This document shows, piece after piece, positions 4,439 through 34,469 of a stretch of 43,639 nt of DNA. Both the position numbers and the translations under genes were made by a program. The notes beneath the pieces were generated by a model. The model saw only the letters and a list, made by a program, of their open reading frames with translations, was not told the origin of the DNA and searched no databases. How positions within the stretch are numbered: position 1 is the stretch's first letter; every line of letters begins with the position of its first letter. Source of the DNA: a virus (taxonomy: Duplodnaviria; Heunggongvirae; Uroviricota; Caudoviricetes); IMG/VR virus record IMGVR_UViG_2617270952_000006. One strand, given 5' to 3'.

Positions 4439-6451
4439 TCAAATCAGCCCATAAATAACATTATGCAAATGAAGAGAGCCTGCTTCACCGGAAACATCAA
4501 AATCAATCCTAACTTTGCTTGCTCCAGGAGGAACAATATCTATTAATGCGTAGAAATTCCATGTGGAGCCTGATGGAATTGTAAATGTTGCTTTTCCCTG
4601 AACAGAGTTCCCTTCTTTATCAAAAAACTCAATACCAGAGATTGTTGTCACTTGATTCTTAGCCCAAAAACCTAACTGGAAATATCGTCCTGGTGAGCAG
4701 TCTGAGCACTCCTGATAAAATTTTGCAGATGCTCCTATAGATGGTATTGCTACATACAAAGACCTGGAAAACATAATATCATTTGGAACATCAGAATCCG
4801 TTCCTGCTGTAACAACACCTGAACCAGTTTGTTGAAGGCTCCAGTTAGAGTAGTTTAAAAACTGTCCACTTCCATTTGATAGCGAATTTATGTATGGACT
4901 AACTATGTTCCCTTTATCCCACTGAGTTGTTATAAATCCAGATCGTGGATAGCATCCATATGACATTATTTTTTTACTATTACCTCCAACTACCTGTCTA
5001 GTTGCTGATCCTGTCGCCAAATCCATTTGGTCAAATAAAGGCAATGAGCAATTTGTTAATGAAAGTACTGAATCATCATTTACAACAAACGGAACTGAAC
5101 TATATCCAGAGGGAGTAAGTAGCGTTGTATCTTTAATGCTTATTCTTGTGCTTCCAGATGCAGAGAACGCCACAAAGCTTTGACCTGGCTGAAACTCAAT
5201 ATTTCCACTTGAGTAAACAACGGTTGCGTTATCTTCAATAAAAACAGTAGAATCAAAATAACCTTCTTTCTTACCTGCTGGCATAGAGCAACAGTTAAAA
5301 ATAAATTGACCATTTCTAATTGTCAATGGACCTCCATTATCAACAACCCAACAATTATTAAATGTCATTACCTCGCCTGAGTTTGATGGAGAATTAAATA
5401 TAATTGTGTTGTTTAGACATCTTGATATTGTTACTTTGTCAAATAAAATTCTATATGAATTATCAAGAAACTCAATTCCAGCAGATGATATGAATGAAGA
5501 ATTACTTATTCTTAACTCTGATAATTCACCAGTGCCAATACCTCCAAGTAAAATCTTTTTAGATCCTAGCATCTTAAAAGATATGCCATCTAAAATTGAT
5601 GTTGCATTTATTTCATCCCTATTATCATAAGAAATATTAGAGTTACTTAACCTAATTGCATAATCACCTGATATCCCATTAATCTCAGTTAAAACGCATT
5701 TATTCGATCCTCTTAACCCACCTTTCGCGAAATCAATATCAATTAAAGACGAGAATTCTCCACTACATGGAACAACGCAATCATAACCTAGAGAGTTTAT
5801 TTTATTAATAAATAATGCAATATCCCCAGCGCCGCTGTAACCAGCGTCATATACAGAAAACTCAAGGCTTGGGTTTATTCTCTTCCAATTTACACCGTTA
5901 CCTTCTAAAACCATTACGTTATCAACTGCAATTGACTTGTCTACAGCTACAACAAACCCACCACCAAGTTCGAGTCCGGATACGTATGATTTTAAATATA
6001 ATTTATCAGATATCGACATTCCTTGTATATCTTTAAGGGAGTTAGCGCTCTCTACCATTCCAATGTATTTGTATCCAATATTACTTGATAGTTTTATAGA
6101 TAACTGATCAGGATCATACTTCAGCACATTAGGAAAATAGAACTGCTGCGCACCGTACGCATCATAAACAGCCATAGAATGGCCTTGCACGGTTACGAAT
6201 TTGGCAATCTGTCCGTTATATACCGGGTAACCAGCAGCGTTAATGATGATTGGTTGCGATACAGGAACGTGAGAACCGTCTTCGTTCTCTACATAAACCT
6301 GAATCTGGTTTTCAGGATTTACCGGGTCAGTGTCAATTTTTCCGATATAAATTTTGCCATTGGCATTTGCTTTAAACGAGCGAGCTAAAGTAAATAACTG
6401 ACTTGGTTGTGAAACAACAACGTTGTATAATTGTTCTGGCATAATAAACAT
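4439..6451 (-). CDS. Tailspike protein: P22 gp9-like N-terminal head-binding domain fused to a distinct beta-helix receptor-binding/depolymerase domain
   Basis: N-terminal ~110 aa align with P22 tailspike (..NVVVS.P...F...[34 protein letters not shown]....P.IINAAG...YNGQ......VQGHSMA.YDA.G.Q......NVLKYDPDQ); remainder is N/S/G-rich repeat-like sequence typical of parallel beta-helix; visibly A+T-rich. Confidence 0.85.
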
Positions 6452-6464
6452 TCCGGAGAAAATA

Positions 6465-6965
6465 ATGAGTAAGAGACGTCACGAGGTAGTAACTCGGGAG
6501 CGCCTTATGGAGGTTCTCGATTACAATAAAGAAACAGGAATTTTCACTTGGAAAAAGAAATTAAGCGCCAGAGGTGCTGTTGGGAAAGTTGCTGGCACAA
6601 TTTCTTATGGATATAACGCAATTAATATTGATGGCGTAAGATATTTTGCACATAGACTTGCCTGGCTGTATGTATATGGCGAATGGCCCAAACAAGAGAT
6701 TGACCACATTGATAGAAACAGAAGAAATAACGCAATCTCAAACCTTAGGGATGTCAGCAGAGTCGTAAATGCATTAAATGTCGGACCTCGAAATAGCAAT
6801 GCTGGAATCAAGGGGGTAACTTTCTGTCAAGCCAGAAATCAATGGCAAGCTCAGATAAATGTCTCAGGTAAAAACATAACCCTTGGGAGATTCAACACCA
6901 TTGATGAAGCGGCTATAGCTTATAAGGCAGCAAACATGGTTGCTGACCATCTGTTGAGTAGGTAA
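6465..6965 (+). CDS. HNH endonuclease with C-terminal AP2-like DNA-binding domain (free-standing homing-endonuclease type)
   Basis: Motifs ..[17 protein letters not shown].. (HNH) and ..[40 protein letters not shown].. (AP2-like); ATG 6465 preceded by GGAG RBS; A+T-rich; opposite strand to flanking late genes. Confidence 0.7.
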
Positions 6966-7075: not shown

Positions 7076-8011
7076 TCAGTAGTTATGTACTGAAGGAGGT
7101 AATTCTTTATTCTTAAGTCTCATCCATGCGGAAAGATTCGTTGGTCCGTCTGGCTCATTAATATCAACATCTCGTGTGCGATTGATTAAAACGTCTCTCG
7201 CCATTCCGATAACATACGAGAACTCATGACCGTAGTCGTAGCATCTGCCTGAATAGTTCGATTGAATTTGTTTTAGCGCCGGATACAGTTCGCGGAATAA
7301 TGCCTGTGAGCGGTTGGCATAATCCCATAACCATACAAGGCTGTTTACTTCTTTTGCAGAAAGCTCGTTGGTTTTCTTCTCTTGTTTGCCAATGAACTCA
7401 CCTTCAAGTGGAACTCGAGCTGCAAGTGATAGTGCTTCGGTAAACTGCTCCTCACTGATTTCTTTGTATGAACATCCAAAATGGGATTTCAGTGACGACC
7501 ACATGGTGATCATCGCCTTAGCCTGTTTTTCCTTTGGCAGAGACTGACCGCGACTCATGACGAGTTGTTTAATGGCTTCCTGCTGTTCAGTGGTGATTTT
7601 ACCCGGCAACGCCTTTTTAGCTTTGCGCGGGTTAACTACATGGCCTTTAGTCCAGTAGTCATGCAGCACGCTAAAGCATTCCTCCTGGTACTGAATCAGT
7701 TTATCGCGGATGTCAGCACGAACTTTCTCAGGGTTGATGCTGAACAGCCATCCATTTAACTTCTTCAAAGGAAGGCAGAGTAGCTTACGAAGCTTTCCAT
7801 CAGCAGCAACCATATTCATATGAATACATTTGAACTTATCTAGTTGTTTCATAAGTTTTTGTTGCTGAGTACCCCAGCTCATTCCGAGGTTTTCAACGAT
7901 TGGCTTCATCGCAACATATGCAACTCCGGCAGCCATGGCGGTGATAATTTGCTGACCGTTGAATGGTACGTAAGAGGTGTTCACTGCTTCTAAAATTGCT
8001 ATACTATTCAT
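7076..8011 (-). CDS. ant: Antirepressor Ant (P22 immI-type)
   Basis: Large ORF immediately downstream of arc on the same strand; start taken at ATG 8011 ([17 protein letters not shown]..); ORF track extends to a GTG at 8077 that overlaps the upstream ORF. Confidence 0.7.
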
Positions 8012-8073
8012 GTTGGTTTTTCTCCACGGATTTACTGACAACCGAAGCCCTGACTGTTCCCGCAGTTGGGGCT

Positions 8074-8256
8074 TCACTGTTTTATGTTCACATCTAACAT
8101 TGTTTTTCTAGAATTTAACTCTTTCCCCATCGCTTCAACGCAAAGAGATACACAACTACTACAGATAAATATCTCTGCTTTAGCGCGAATCAACATTGCA
8201 CATTCATGCTGAGGCTTTCCGCAGAAGGAGCACTTAAAGCCATCTTCTTTATTCAT
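8074..8256 (-). CDS. 60-aa protein with ClpX-type C4 zinc-ribbon (ZBD-like) motif
   Basis: [43 protein letters not shown].. parallels the ClpX N-terminal zinc-binding domain (CSFCGK.QHE..LI......IC..CV.LC); start ATG overlaps arc stop (ATGA); preceded by GGGGGTGG RBS. Confidence 0.6.
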
Positions 8257-8405
8257 ATCGCCACCCCCTCTTTCTTCAGGCTGTCTATCAGGCGCTTGAT
8301 AACCTCTGAGTTAAACGACCTGCACTCTTCCTTTGCCCTGCTACCGATAGCATCCTTTAACGACTGCGGCATCCTTACCAAAATCTTACTTATTTCTTTC
8401 TCCAT
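8253..8405 (-). CDS. arc: Arc-like ribbon-helix-helix repressor
   Basis: 50-aa product [50 protein letters not shown]; RHH signature (..RSFNSE..) as in P22 Arc; GGAGGG RBS upstream of ATG 8405. Confidence 0.7.
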   Translation of the reverse strand: MEKEISKILVRMPQSLKDAIGSRAKEECRSFNSEVIKRLIDSLKKEGVAI

Positions 8406-8519
8406 GTTACCCTCCACACAAACAACTCTTTTCGAATACAAAAGATAGCAAAGTGAGTATATCTAGTCAAAATTTTTTTGCATACACTTTGATATCAAAT
8501 TGAATACCAAAGGTGTGTT
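8406..8519. promoter_or_regulatory. Divergent mnt/arc control region (Pant/Pmnt analog) containing a perfect 12-bp palindrome TTTGATATCAAA at 8488-8499
   Basis: Intergenic region between divergently oriented RHH repressor genes; palindrome seen directly; A+T-rich. Confidence 0.4.
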
Positions 8520-8768
8520 ATGGCAAAGGGTGTGTCAATTTCTCCAACTACGGTAAGAATCCCTGAATCTTTACGCGAGGCTCTTGCTGTTAGAGCATCA
8601 AAAAATGGTCGCTCTGTTAACTCCGAGATCGTCATGATTTTGCAAGCCGCGATTGATGAAGATAGGTCGCCAAAGTCAGTTGAGTCATTTGCTCAGCAAG
8701 AAGCTGACAAATTCAAAGAGGCGCTGCTGGAGACGCTGAAAACCATGTATGGTAAGGATGATAAATAA
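8520..8768 (+). CDS. mnt: Mnt-like ribbon-helix-helix repressor
   Basis: 82-aa product with N-terminal RHH (..RIPESLREALAVRASKNGRSVNSEIV..) and C-terminal helical region, divergent from arc as in P22 immI. Confidence 0.75.
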   Translation: MAKGVSISPTTVRIPESLREALAVRASKNGRSVNSEIVMILQAAIDEDRSPKSVESFAQQEADKFKEALLETLKTMYGKDDK

Positions 8769-9304
8769 TGCTGCACACAATTCATTTCTTATGCCCCGTT
8801 AACACCGCCACTGTTGGGCAACTTCAGAACCACTGTCTCACCGCATTATCTCAAGGCGCAACTGAATTAAATATCCATATATCAAGTCAGGGAGGGGAAA
8901 CTGCCGCTGGTTTTACTGCGTATAACTTTCTTAAGTCACTCCCTGTTACCGTTAGAACTCACAACATAAGCAATGTTGAATCCATAGCTAATATCGTTTT
9001 CCTGGCTGGCTCAGAACGTTTCGCAAACCCATTATCAAGATTCCTGTTACATCCTCTATTATGGGGCTTTGCCTCCCCAGCCGCCGACCATGCCAGACTG
9101 AGAGAGTACGGGAAATGCCTCGATAACGATCTTGATCGCTTCGTTGAGACGTTCAATATCGACATCGGAACCCATATTAGGTGGGCATCCCTGATAGCAG
9201 ACTCGACCATTTTGGATGCTAACAAGGCTCTTGAGCATGGCATAATTAATTCCATAAAAACTGCAAGGCTGGCATCCAATCAGGCAAACTGGTGGGTTGT
9301 TTGA
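8768..9304 (+). CDS. ClpP-family (peptidase S14-like) serine peptidase homolog
   Basis: By-eye alignment to E. coli ClpP: IHISSQGGETAAG vs INSPGGVITAG; NVESIANIVFLAGSERFANPLSRFLLHPL vs [31 protein letters not shown] (candidate Ser and His aligned); start ATG overlaps mnt stop (TAATG). Confidence 0.65.
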   Translation: MLHTIHFLCPVNTATVGQLQNHCLTALSQGATELNIHISSQGGETAAGFTAYNFLKSLPVTVRTHNISNVESIANIVFLAGSERFANPLSRFLLHPLLWGFASPAADHARLREYGKCLDNDLDRFVETFNIDIGTHIRWASLIADSTILDANKALEHGIINSIKTARLASNQANWWVV

Positions 9305-9360: not shown

Positions 9361-9780
9361 TTAATCTTGCTTCGTGGAAGGTATAAGAGATGCATTTGCC
9401 TCTTTTGGCTTCAATGTATACATCCCACCATTAAATGGATCAACAGCAAGCCAACCAATTAACCCACCAAACACAAGGTTTCCACCAATATACCAACCAT
9501 TAGCATTGGCTTTGATTGGCAGGGTAACTGGTTCGTACCCATCCTTCTCCATAGTGATCTGGTAGCTCTTTTTGCCAAAATAGCTACCATCTGACTTGGC
9601 GAGTGTTACACCTTGTGGAGTCTTACCTTGCGCAACAATCACACCCGATTCATCTTTTACCTTAAAGCTCGCGCCAGAAGGATTGCTGTTCACTTGCACA
9701 AGTTGCGTTTCATCACCAACAATAGTTGCGCACCCAGATAACATGATAACGCCAGCAACGACGCTAATAATCCTCTTCAT
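9361..9780 (-). CDS. Lipoprotein with PEGA-like domain and C-terminal glycine-zipper hydrophobic segment
   Basis: Signal peptide with lipobox (MKRIISVVAGVIMLSGC); PEGA-like stretch (..VQVNSNPSGASFKV..GKTPQGVTL..DGYEP..); C-terminal ..WYIGGNLVFGGLIGWLAV..; A+T-rich. Confidence 0.55.
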   Translation of the reverse strand: MKRIISVVAGVIMLSGCATIVGDETQLVQVNSNPSGASFKVKDESGVIVAQGKTPQGVTLAKSDGSYFGKKSYQITMEKDGYEPVTLPIKANANGWYIGGNLVFGGLIGWLAVDPFNGGMYTLKPKEANASLIPSTKQD

Positions 9781-9897
9781 ATCAATTTCCATATTTAAAA
9801 AACCGGAAACATCCTAATGACAAAACATTCAAATGTGAAGTAGGCAAAAGATGTTTACTTTTTTCATGGTATCCTGCTCAAAACTAAGGAGGTTGGT

Positions 9898-32148: not shown

Positions 32149-33525
32149 TCATACGTCCGCCCCTTGTGCATATCGTCTGCCACGCGCAGCAGGTGCATTT
32201 GATGCTGTGCAAATCTGTCTGGCTTCATCCTGGTCACATGCAACAAAGTGTCCGTTGCAGAACCGCTGGTAAACCGTACCAAGCGAGCCAAAACGGTTTT
32301 TCGTCACGATGATTTCAGCAAATGGCGCGGCGCTACTGTTCTCGTCATATACCGCTTCCCGATAGAGCATGATGATTGAGTCTGCGTCCTGCTCAATGCT
32401 TCCTGAATCACGCAAATCTGCGTTTGTCGGGCGTTTGTTTGGTCGCTTCTCAACATCGCGCGAAAGCTGACTTAGGGAGATAACAGGCGTTTTCAAGTCT
32501 TTCGCCATCGCCTTCAGGCTTCCTGAGATGTGAGCAATTGCGAGGTCGTTGCGGTCTGCTTTCGGCTTCTCAATCAGGCCAAGATAATCCGCCATGATGA
32601 GTGAGAGGTTTGGATTTTCCTGTTTGTGCCGTTCTGCGATTGAGCGTATTTCTTCGACCGATAACCGCGAGGCATCGACTACCCATACATCCAAATCTGC
32701 AAGCTGACTCATGCCGTTAGCAACACGTGCCCAGCCCTCGTCATCCATTGATGCAGGATTTCGCAGTACGCTAACCGACATCCTCCCGGCGTTGGCAATG
32801 CTTCGCTCTGCAATCTGCAATGCGCTCATTTCCATTGAGAAAATCAATACTCCGCGCCGGACGTCAGAACCAGGAATAACGCGGCTTGCAACGCCTTCGG
32901 CAATCTTCAGCGCCAGTTCGGTTTTCCCCATACCAGGACGAGCAGCGATTATCACCAGGTCTTCCGCGTTCATCCCTCCGGTGATGGCATCAAGTTCTTC
33001 GATTCCGGTCTTCAGGGTATCTGACTCTTCTCCGTTCCTCAGACGCCTGTCAAGCGTGTCGGTGTAGTCAGTGATGATTTCCCCTAAGCGTACCGGTTTA
33101 ACCTCGTCACGGGGCTTTCTGATGGCTGAGAGACGCTTTACAAGTTCATCCATCGCCTGACTCGATGCGTCGATGGTTCCGCTCTGAATTGGTTCACGCA
33201 TTTCATCCATGATTTCCAGCACCAGACGGCGGTGATAGTTATCCGCGACCATTCCGGCATATCCCTTCAGGTTTGCGGCACTCGGGCAGTTTTTGCTGGT
33301 CATCAGGATTGACGTGAAATGCTCCTCTCCGCACGCCTCGGCAACCATCAGCGCATCGATTAGGTTTCTGTTTCTCGCCTGCTTGCGGATAACCTCGAAG
33401 GCTTTCCGGTAGAGTGGAATTGAAAACGCTTCCGGATCCAGCGTTGCCAGAACGTCGCTGGCGGTTGGTGTTAATCCACCAATCAGCAGGCCACCGATAA
33501 CGCTCGCTTCGATATCCTGTCTCAT
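32149..33525 (-). CDS. Replicative DNA helicase, DnaB family (P22 gene 12-like)
   Basis: 458-aa product with DnaB N-domain and RecA-like core: Walker A ..[12 protein letters not shown].., ..LIFSMEMS.., ..IIMLYRE.. Confidence 0.9.
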
Positions 33526-34469
33526 GCAATCCCCCTGTCTGCAAACTTCCCTTCCCGAACTCCCGTTAACGAGTCTTCCCTCAGCAGGTAATCAAAATCT
33601 GCCGTCCAGCCCGTGTCGTTGTCTCCGAAGTAAAACGGCTTGGCCTGATGCACAAACGCCCTGACATACGCTCTGAAACCGTCCACGTTTGGCGTTTTCA
33701 GTTGCGGAATGATTTTCTTCAGGCGGCGTTTGCGTTTCTCGTTGACCGCAACAGCGTGTGGCAGTCTGTCACCGACTTCGGTGTTGTAGGCGTTCAGGAA
33801 GGATTCGTAGTCGATTCGTTCTGCCTTGCGACGTTCAGGTTTAACCTGCCCATCGCCTCCCCCATTGGGGGGTAGGGGGGTATTATTTATATTCTTGTTA
33901 ATACCTTCTTGTTCATGATGTGCGGTTGTTTGTGCGGCTTCATGTGCGCTTTCATGTGCGGCATGTGCGCTGAAAGCCGCGCCATTACTGGCTTCTCCAT
34001 GTGCGGCATCATGTGCGGTTGTTTGTGCGGCTTCATGTGCGGGTAAATTGTCCATTTTTTGAGCATATTCATGGTAATTTGTGATGGTTATCACACGACC
34101 TTTTTGCTTCTCTCCATCAATGGAGATCATCCCCTCTTTCACAAAAACCTGAAGCATCCGCTCAACCTGATCACGGCTTGCTGGCTTGCCATGTCTGTCG
34201 CATAACTGAAGACCTAAATCAGCTGCTGTCACAACCAGTTGACCGGGTTGCAGATGCCATTCATGACCTTTGAAATTCGCTTTGTATGGCTTTCTGGCGG
34301 CATTCAGGAGAAGGTTTTCCCACAGGGTGCGAAGATAAACATCTTTCGCCCATGACTGTTTCAGAATGCTCCGGTACAACGGAATGTAACCAGTTTTCTG
34401 GTTCTCCATCCTGTTGCTCCTGCGCTCGTGTGCGGCGCTGAAATCGTAGATTTTTGCTGTATTGCTCAT
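33522..34469 (-). CDS. Replication initiator (lambda O / P22 gp18-like) containing the origin iterons
   Basis: 315-aa product upstream of helicase; internal His/Ala-rich repeat encoded by DNA iterons; N-terminal region O-like. Confidence 0.75.
33880..34045. repeat. Replication origin-like iteron array within the initiator gene, with adjacent A+T-rich tract
   Basis: Direct repeats: ~35-bp unit tcatgatgtgcggttgtttgtgcggcttcatgtgcg (33913-33948) repeated at 34007-34041, plus shorter catgtgcgg copies between; A+T-rich 33880-33905. Confidence 0.6.

Follow-up and report, generated by a model that had tools for sequence, protein, structure and literature searches.

The window, by which we mean the whole 43,639-nucleotide stretch of IMG/VR virus record IMGVR_UViG_2617270952_000006 that was analysed here, is a P22-like prophage of the E. 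coli type. Its left flank carries mlaA, a formate/nitrite-transporter gene and an IntS-type integrase gene, followed by tailspike, injection, head, lysis, nin, replication and immC genes. The immI region has the composition of that of P22: mnt and arc-ant are divergent, the repressors are of the ribbon-helix-helix (RHH) type and match Pfam Arc, the antirepressor gene ant encodes P22_AR_N and P22_AR_C domains, the sar antisense RNA lies across the ant ribosome-binding site, and mnt, arc, sar and ant all stand in the canonical order and orientation. The departure is found immediately downstream of arc. In P22 itself, arc abuts the sar terminator, ending 7 nt before the hairpin, whereas here a 183-nt cistron separates arc from the sar/ant leader. 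Its product is a stand-alone zinc-binding domain (ZBD) of the type found at the N-terminus of the host unfoldase ClpX, and we refer to it as mini-ZBD. Features of the locus, together with other genes discussed below, are listed in Table 1.

Table 1. Features of the window discussed in the text, with the evidence on which each assignment rests
Feature	Coordinates	Strand	Evidence
mini-ZBD gene (60-aa stand-alone ClpX-type C4 zinc ribbon; Cys9, 12, 32, 35)	8074..8256	-	ORF, Pfam, PDB, AF2/Foldseek
arc (50 aa, RHH repressor)	8253..8405	-	Pfam Arc 47.8 bits
Pant-like sigma-70 promoter (TTGACT-17-TATCTT with TG), 5' of arc	8442..8470	-	consensus scan only
sar antisense RNA with terminator hairpin (8044..8075) and U-tract	8012..8085	+	Rfam, terminator scan
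ant (311 aa antirepressor), ATG 8011	7076..8011	-	P22_AR_N 151 bits, P22_AR_C 100 bits; phrog_245
mnt (82 aa), divergent from arc	8520..8768	+	Pfam Arc/FitA-like RHH; phrog_2685
lambda-O-like replication initiator	33522..34469	-	Pfam Phage_rep_O 56.9 bits; translation
promoter-like site (TTCACA-16-TAGAAT)	8087..8114	+	10/12 matches
ClpP-like serine protease (178 aa)	8768..9304	+	Pfam CLP_protease 46.6 bits
HNH_3 + AP2 protein (180 aa)	6423..6965	+	PADLOC 'homing endonuclease' model, E 2.8e-7
predicted lipoprotein (143 aa)	9361..9792	-	

The original prediction placed a 60-residue open reading frame (ORF) between arc and ant, starting on the arc stop codon behind a ribosome-binding site, and the sequence bears this out. 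The ATG overlaps the end of arc in an ATGA junction (..GCG ATA TGA / ATG AAT..), and GAGGGGG is located about 8 nt upstream of it; a stand-alone ZBD is indeed encoded inside the arc-ant operon, in translational coupling with arc. At the other end, the stop codon occupies positions 8074-8076, and the U-tract of the sar terminator is complementary to the last codons (..AAA CAG TGA). The Rfam sar family (RF00262) is matched at full length at 8012..8078 on the plus strand (87.7 bits, gathering score 43; E 4.8e-19), positions 8012..8073 (62 nt) form the sar/ant leader, and ant has its own Shine-Dalgarno sequence and starts as in P22. The mini-ZBD gene lies wholly upstream of this leader, and because both sar and the ant start are downstream of it, the gene is not simply ant leader. 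This bears directly on the alternative that the interval is no gene at all and represents only the ant 5' leader with sar, ant being read from GTG 8077. A frame can be followed mechanically from GTG 8077 into ant, but it is a mechanical ORF only, and a product that matches a domain family at E 4e-11 from a 183-nt ORF upstream of sar, as well as the RefSeq annotation in nine genomes, is hard to reconcile with a leader; we therefore consider this alternative extremely improbable.

RefSeq/PGAP labels the product 'ClpX C4-type zinc finger protein' in nine of the ten complete genomes that contain the gene, and arc is annotated at the same coordinates in the RefSeq homologues. The earlier statement that no described immI component of this kind was known does not hold as worded: mini-ZBD is already named by automatic annotation, and it is the proposed function that would be new. 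Literature searches combining the ClpX ZBD with phage, antirepressor or zinc finger returned no study of mini-ZBD or of the site that it occupies.

The C4 pattern was predicted to track the ClpX ZBD, and profile and structure comparisons agree with this assignment. The protein matches the Pfam zf-C4_ClpX model (PF06689) at profile positions 2-36 of 39 with 43 bits, well above the 27-bit gathering score (E 4.1e-11), and a Pfam scan with E values up to 1 revealed no other family. A PDB sequence search returned ClpX only, with the isolated-ZBD entries 1OVX and 2DS5 at E ~1e-7. The Pfam score and these ClpX-only matches place the original observation far beyond chance. Over 38-40 residues mini-ZBD is ~47% identical to the E. 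coli ClpX ZBD, and C9, C12, C32 and C35 align with the ClpX zinc ligands at ClpX spacing (CxxC...CxxC), in columns that are invariant in the alignments. Also kept are CSFCGK, Q16, C39, Phe11 (equivalent to ClpX F16) and the hydrophobic core positions L22, I23, I31, V36 and L38; judging from these residues, the dimer core of the ClpX ZBD is probably kept as well.

An AlphaFold2 (AF2) model built from a 36-row multiple sequence alignment (MSA) has a predicted local distance difference test (pLDDT) score above 90 for residues 11-40, and low confidence for residues 45-60. In Foldseek searches this model superposes on the ClpX ZBD crystal structures 2DS5, 2DS6, 2DS7 and 2DS8 with root-mean-square deviations of 0.9-1.0 Å, target-normalised template modelling scores of 0.78-0.86 and a probability of 1.00, sharing with the ClpX N-domain (PF06689; 1OVX, 2DS5-2DS8) the treble-clef fold of a beta-hairpin and C-terminal helix as well as the C4 spacing and CSFCGK. 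Most rows of that alignment are N-termini of ClpX, and many of these seem to be truncated clpX calls; the model therefore leans towards ClpX. The model made from the single sequence is weak (pLDDT 63) and still ranks ClpX and ZBD crystal forms first. Short ZBD proteins retrieved in the alignment search were rejected as free ZBDs and used for the MSA only, since the presence of canonical LIAGP, ICDEC and DII residues identifies most of them as apparent truncated clpX fragments. Overall, mini-ZBD is clearly a genuine member of the ClpX ZBD family, yet not ClpX itself: it has 60 residues and no AAA+ module (ClpX has ~420 residues), reaches 29-33 bits with NCBIfam ClpX equivalog models whose cut-offs are 359-371, and is encoded in a phage immunity operon rather than next to clpP.

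Scanning IMG/VR for the sar hairpin yielded 113 P22-like loci with enough upstream sequence to be analysed. It had been assumed that arc is normally followed directly by ant; this is true for only ~58% of the sampled loci (65, in which arc abuts the hairpin). The other 42% (48 loci) hold exactly there an ORF belonging to one of eight alternative families, several of them C4 ribbons: Zn67 (17 loci), o57 (10), o73 (7), o89 (7; with a hydrophobic and, as read from its sequence, possibly membrane-spanning segment), o80 (2), Zn74 (2), Zn63 (1) and the ClpX-type ZBD (2, one of them truncated). C4 zinc ribbons account for 22 of the 48 occupants (~45%). All intact slot ORFs (47/47) overlap the end of arc by 4 nt (ATGA or GTGA), their ends read AAA(C/G)(A/T)(G/T)TGA and are fused to the hairpin, and this junction is kept in all 120 loci. 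Phages phiv205-1 and EC.P3, which have nearly identical arc genes, carry different and unrelated ORFs in the slot, and the slot of PhiR12_1 is empty. Because the 4-nt overlap with arc and the hairpin junction are constant across differing occupants, the slot seems to be a place where recombination exchanges cassettes, with the 3' end of arc on one side and the sar terminator on the other. This is a more general and better-supported result than mini-ZBD itself. We regard it as very highly probable that mini-ZBD is the product of a true gene, that it is a ZBD of the ClpX type and that its gene occupies a cassette slot.

Relationships between mini-ZBD and the other zinc ribbons of the slot are much less clear-cut. 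Zn67 corresponds to phrog_7150, and both Zn67 and the ClpX-type ZBD match phrog_5259, if weakly. With the zf-C4_ClpX model Zn63 and Zn74 score 12 and 18.9 bits, respectively, below the 27-bit cut-off, and Zn67 gives no match. In hhalign comparisons the ZBD profile is matched with 56% probability to the Zn67/Zn63 alignment and with 21% to Zn74. These scores lend marginal support to common ancestry, which is possible. Two unrelated slot ORFs, o73 and o80 (for example in L048 and L061), both show sub-threshold similarity to Pfam FlbD (14.6 and 21.5 bits; cut-off 24.7). The arc genes themselves vary at their 3' ends: those upstream of an occupied slot end in ..DSLK(R/K)(E/D)G plus three nonpolar residues (..REGITV, ..EGVAI, ..EGVMV, ..EGVVV), and P22-type arcs upstream of an empty slot end in ..FKKEGRIGA. 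This difference may mark a recombination flank or affect the stability of Arc.

A published description of the 'ant moron' noted its high gene-level flux, but not the slot, and described CUS-3 as lacking arc (epsilon34 paper, PMC2629481). CUS-3 does have arc, followed by an ATGA-coupled 67-residue Zn67 (phrog_7150); both lie in a region whose sole annotation is 'bsq2; boundary sequence' (L147 2298..2704; CP000711 6505..6986).

Among 5426 complete E. coli genomes, Megablast identified the mini-ZBD ORF in 10, in each case as a chromosomal copy, and IMG/VR added six more copies, as well as a further allele, P0001, on four contigs. The gene order arc-ZBD-ant was seen in all six genome loci inspected and in six IMG/VR contigs. 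The gene is accompanied by two arc types and at least three ant types (the P22_AR_N type, a 292-residue type and a KilA-N type), and mini-ZBD is thus not tied to one Ant. Cargo beyond mnt in these loci also differs, being the ClpP-like gene, P63C, Panacea or YafO. An exhaustive HMMER scan of 1.84 billion representative sequences found, beyond the known copies, no relative above ~54% identity. The closest single-domain relative (P0143, 54% identity) is encoded in a phage-like array of small ORFs, adjoining a Mom homologue; together with 70-residue proteins in L024 and L025, it represents genuine free ZBDs elsewhere. ZBD-like domains are also present in several PHROG families of unknown function and in other temperate coliphages, for instance at the C-terminus of a 110-residue protein of the P2-like phage P88 (KP063541; L152 2324..2656). 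The P88 protein is misnamed 'carboxylate-amine ligase' and is encoded in an accessory region between the replication and portal genes. Many of the metagenome proteins P0002-P0040 consist of two to six tandem ClpX-type ZBD repeats without an AAA+ module (P0002 has 226 residues and four repeats), an architecture of which we know no earlier description.

What might a free ClpX docking domain do in an immunity operon? We tentatively propose that mini-ZBD could be a soluble mimic of the ClpX N-domain, which would transiently protect N-domain-dependent substrates of ClpXP. In P22, Mnt represses Pant in lysogens; Pant is strong just after infection, before Arc shuts it off, and sar blocks ant translation (Susskind and Youderian; Liao, Wu et al. 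1987). The promoter predicted 5' of arc would correspond to Pant by its position. Given this promoter and the biology of P22, mini-ZBD would be silent in the lysogen, where Mnt would repress Pant, and would be made in step with Arc in a short, strong burst after infection or on loss of Mnt control, until shut-off by Arc. It would be expected to dimerise like the ClpX N-domain and to compete with host ClpX for SspB, RssB, trigger factor and lambda-O-type initiators, and the N-domain-dependent branch of ClpXP proteolysis would be transiently dampened. Such a function is plausible because free ClpX ZBD, a dimer, added in trans inhibits the RssB-mediated breakdown of sigma-S by ClpXP in vitro (PMC7226468). 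That competitor is a laboratory fragment of host ClpX with the same activity as proposed for mini-ZBD; our literature survey found no natural free ZBD acting as a ClpXP competitor.

Degradation of lambda O strictly requires the ClpX ZBD (PMC7804408). A likely beneficiary of the decoy would be the phage's own lambda-O-like initiator, the N-terminus of which reads SNTAKIY. This resembles the N-terminal ClpX signal of lambda O, which is reportedly TNTAKI (Flynn et al. 2003). The gene start annotated in RefSeq for this initiator is an internal methionine (MENQKTGY..), and the frame runs 20 codons further upstream (window positions 34410..34469); the same extension exists at L160 7271..7331 and L163 6169..6229, and it resembles the N-terminus of lambda O. 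The RefSeq start of the O-like gene is thus probably too short.

Several lines of evidence weigh against a decoy. The link to lambda-O-type initiators is not a discriminating one: an initiator of the NTAKI type is encoded by three of the four prophages with an intact ZBD (the window phage and two more), the fourth has a different initiator N-terminus, and NTAKI-type O proteins are common in phages without a ZBD, for example CUS-3 and Stx phages. We therefore rejected this type of O as the ZBD partner; the ZBD is not tied to it. The slot elsewhere holds unrelated proteins, and its logic need not involve ClpX. The protein itself differs from ClpX at ten near-invariant N-domain positions (in alignment positions, V19C; A24R, G25A and P26K; V29I; D33S; E34S or G; I42A; I43M; E45K). 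The AGP turn has become RAK with one inserted loop residue, the DE pair is SS (SG in most alleles), and the II pair is AM. The equivalent of ClpX I46 is Ala42, or Val in allele P0001. In ClpX, F16 and I46 form a hydrophobic pocket common to trigger factor, lambda O, SspB and RssB (PMC7804408). While the fold is kept, replacement of near-invariant surface residues means that ligand specificity may differ, and cannot be assumed to be identical to that of ClpX. The rarity of the allele also counts against a decoy.

So does its variation. The 18 copies of mini-ZBD represent five DNA alleles with six variable sites, none of them synonymous and all six non-synonymous: G34S, A42V, S33N, N57S, the loss of the first zinc ligand (C9Y) and a nonsense change (G13stop). 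The few known alleles show no sign of purifying selection, which weakens the plausibility of a decoy. These changes, the rarity of the allele and the 58% of loci without any slot gene would all suit a neutral or decaying passenger, a cassette that recombination between the conserved 3' end of arc and the sar terminator would have brought in and that would now be without function in this phage. The ratio is not significant, however (0.75^6 ~0.18, taking roughly three quarters of random changes as non-synonymous, a rough figure), and six sites are too few to decide. Both crippled alleles are confined to visibly decaying prophages: IS2 interrupts ant in one of them, which also has a different type of replication module, and the other has lost replication, lysis and head genes. 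Intact alleles retain the exact ATGA coupling and hold every family-invariant residue at only ~47% identity to the host ZBD, which implies that mini-ZBD was long kept as a free-standing domain under purifying selection. A functionless passenger is accordingly an unlikely explanation.

About equally likely as the decoy is a binder that has nothing to do with ClpX, a mini zinc ribbon with another target that would serve as an interchangeable accessory of the early burst in anti-defence, host take-over or assistance to the antirepressor. The replaced surface residues point in this direction, as do the unrelated cassettes that share the slot: it is an exchange site with conserved flanks, eight families and invariable coupling to arc, and its other C4 ribbons are at most marginally similar to the ClpX profile. 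A strong early promoter combined with an autorepressor also resembles the layout of anti-CRISPR/Aca operons. A precedent is CsfB (Gin), an anti-sigma factor of Bacillus subtilis, which is a small dimeric treble-clef zinc domain most similar to the ClpX N-domain and binds sigma factors, working as an inhibitor of its protein partners (PMC5890618). CsfB is ~20% identical to ClpX, and the authors doubt its kinship to ClpX (PMC5890618). The likeness of mini-ZBD to CsfB is at the fold level only, and mini-ZBD is a clear ClpX-family member by sequence; unlike the other ribbons of the slot, it scores well above the family threshold, and it repeats the ClpX motifs (CSFCGK-QHE, LI, IC, CV, LC) nearly verbatim at the identity given above. 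Furthermore, no PADLOC family was matched at E up to 0.01, in a library that consists of defence rather than anti-defence proteins.

Mini-ZBD could also act on ClpX as a subunit rather than a competitor, forming a heterodimer with the host N-domain and either delivering cargo to ClpXP or disabling N-domain movement. Hydrophobic positions in the helix and hairpins that form the ClpX ZBD dimer (PMC5890618) are mostly conserved. The 16-residue C-terminal tail (residues 45-60), which is of low confidence or extended in the model, could bind a second partner. The ClpX ZBD is described as a constitutive dimer, and subunit exchange may therefore be slow; the I46 equivalent is Ala, and there is no cargo candidate. 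Such an adaptor or poison subunit seems very unlikely. A broader version of the decoy proposal would see the arc-sar junction as an exchange hotspot for early-burst mini-proteins, with Arc in the role of Aca, and its ribbons (mini-ZBD, Zn67/phrog_7150, Zn63 and Zn74) as decoys that, in the earliest minutes of infection, disarm the adaptor-docking ClpX N-domain or some other target in the host. We consider this rather doubtful, somewhat more so than the decoy function of mini-ZBD taken by itself.

Phages are known to blunt host AAA+ proteases with modulators such as lambda RexB, T4 PinA and SPO1 Gp53. Mini-ZBD has no sequence or fold relation to these proteins or to P1 icd. The latter is a small ORF upstream of ant in the immI region of P1 and is translationally coupled to ant, whereas mini-ZBD is coupled to arc and parted from ant by the sar leader.

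The region contains further features of interest. A promoter-like site just beyond the sar terminator faces antisense through the mini-ZBD gene and arc, and it may be due to chance (two such sites were found, 1.5 expected). Overlapping the mnt stop codon (TAATG) is the gene for a ClpP-like serine protease. Its Ser72 and His95 align with the catalytic Ser and His of E. coli ClpP. About 33 related loci, of any slot type, carry the gene, which varies at eight synonymous and five non-synonymous sites; phage records label it 'head maturation protease', yet it is situated in the immunity/sieA-equivalent region. An obligate pair of mini-ZBD and ClpP-like protein was rejected, since the ClpP-like gene accompanies all types of slot, empty ones included, and the ZBD is elsewhere neighboured by P63C, Panacea or YafO instead. 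On the other side of ant, between it and the tailspike gene, is the gene for the HNH_3 + AP2 protein, with its start overlapping, on the opposite strand, the region where the tailspike gene starts. Finally, the predicted lipoprotein (..VIMLSGCATIVG..) has no Pfam or PADLOC match; because its gene is sited where P22 has sieA, it is a candidate superinfection-exclusion or moron gene.

ClpXP determines how stable the replication initiators of phages, repressor fragments, sigma-S and some antitoxins are. If mini-ZBD does act as proposed, a natural free ClpX docking domain would be a new way for a phage to retune host proteolysis, and a ready-made tool for inhibiting only the N-domain-dependent substrates of ClpXP; should the reading of the slot as a hotspot of decoys also be true, its ribbons would constitute a natural protease-adaptor mimic, hitherto undescribed. 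The classic P22 immI region has an overlooked variable cistron, which is present in ~40% of the sampled sar-hairpin loci, often unannotated and always coupled to arc. Its eight swap-in mini-proteins provide a compact, genetically tractable set for the study of early host take-over or anti-defence.

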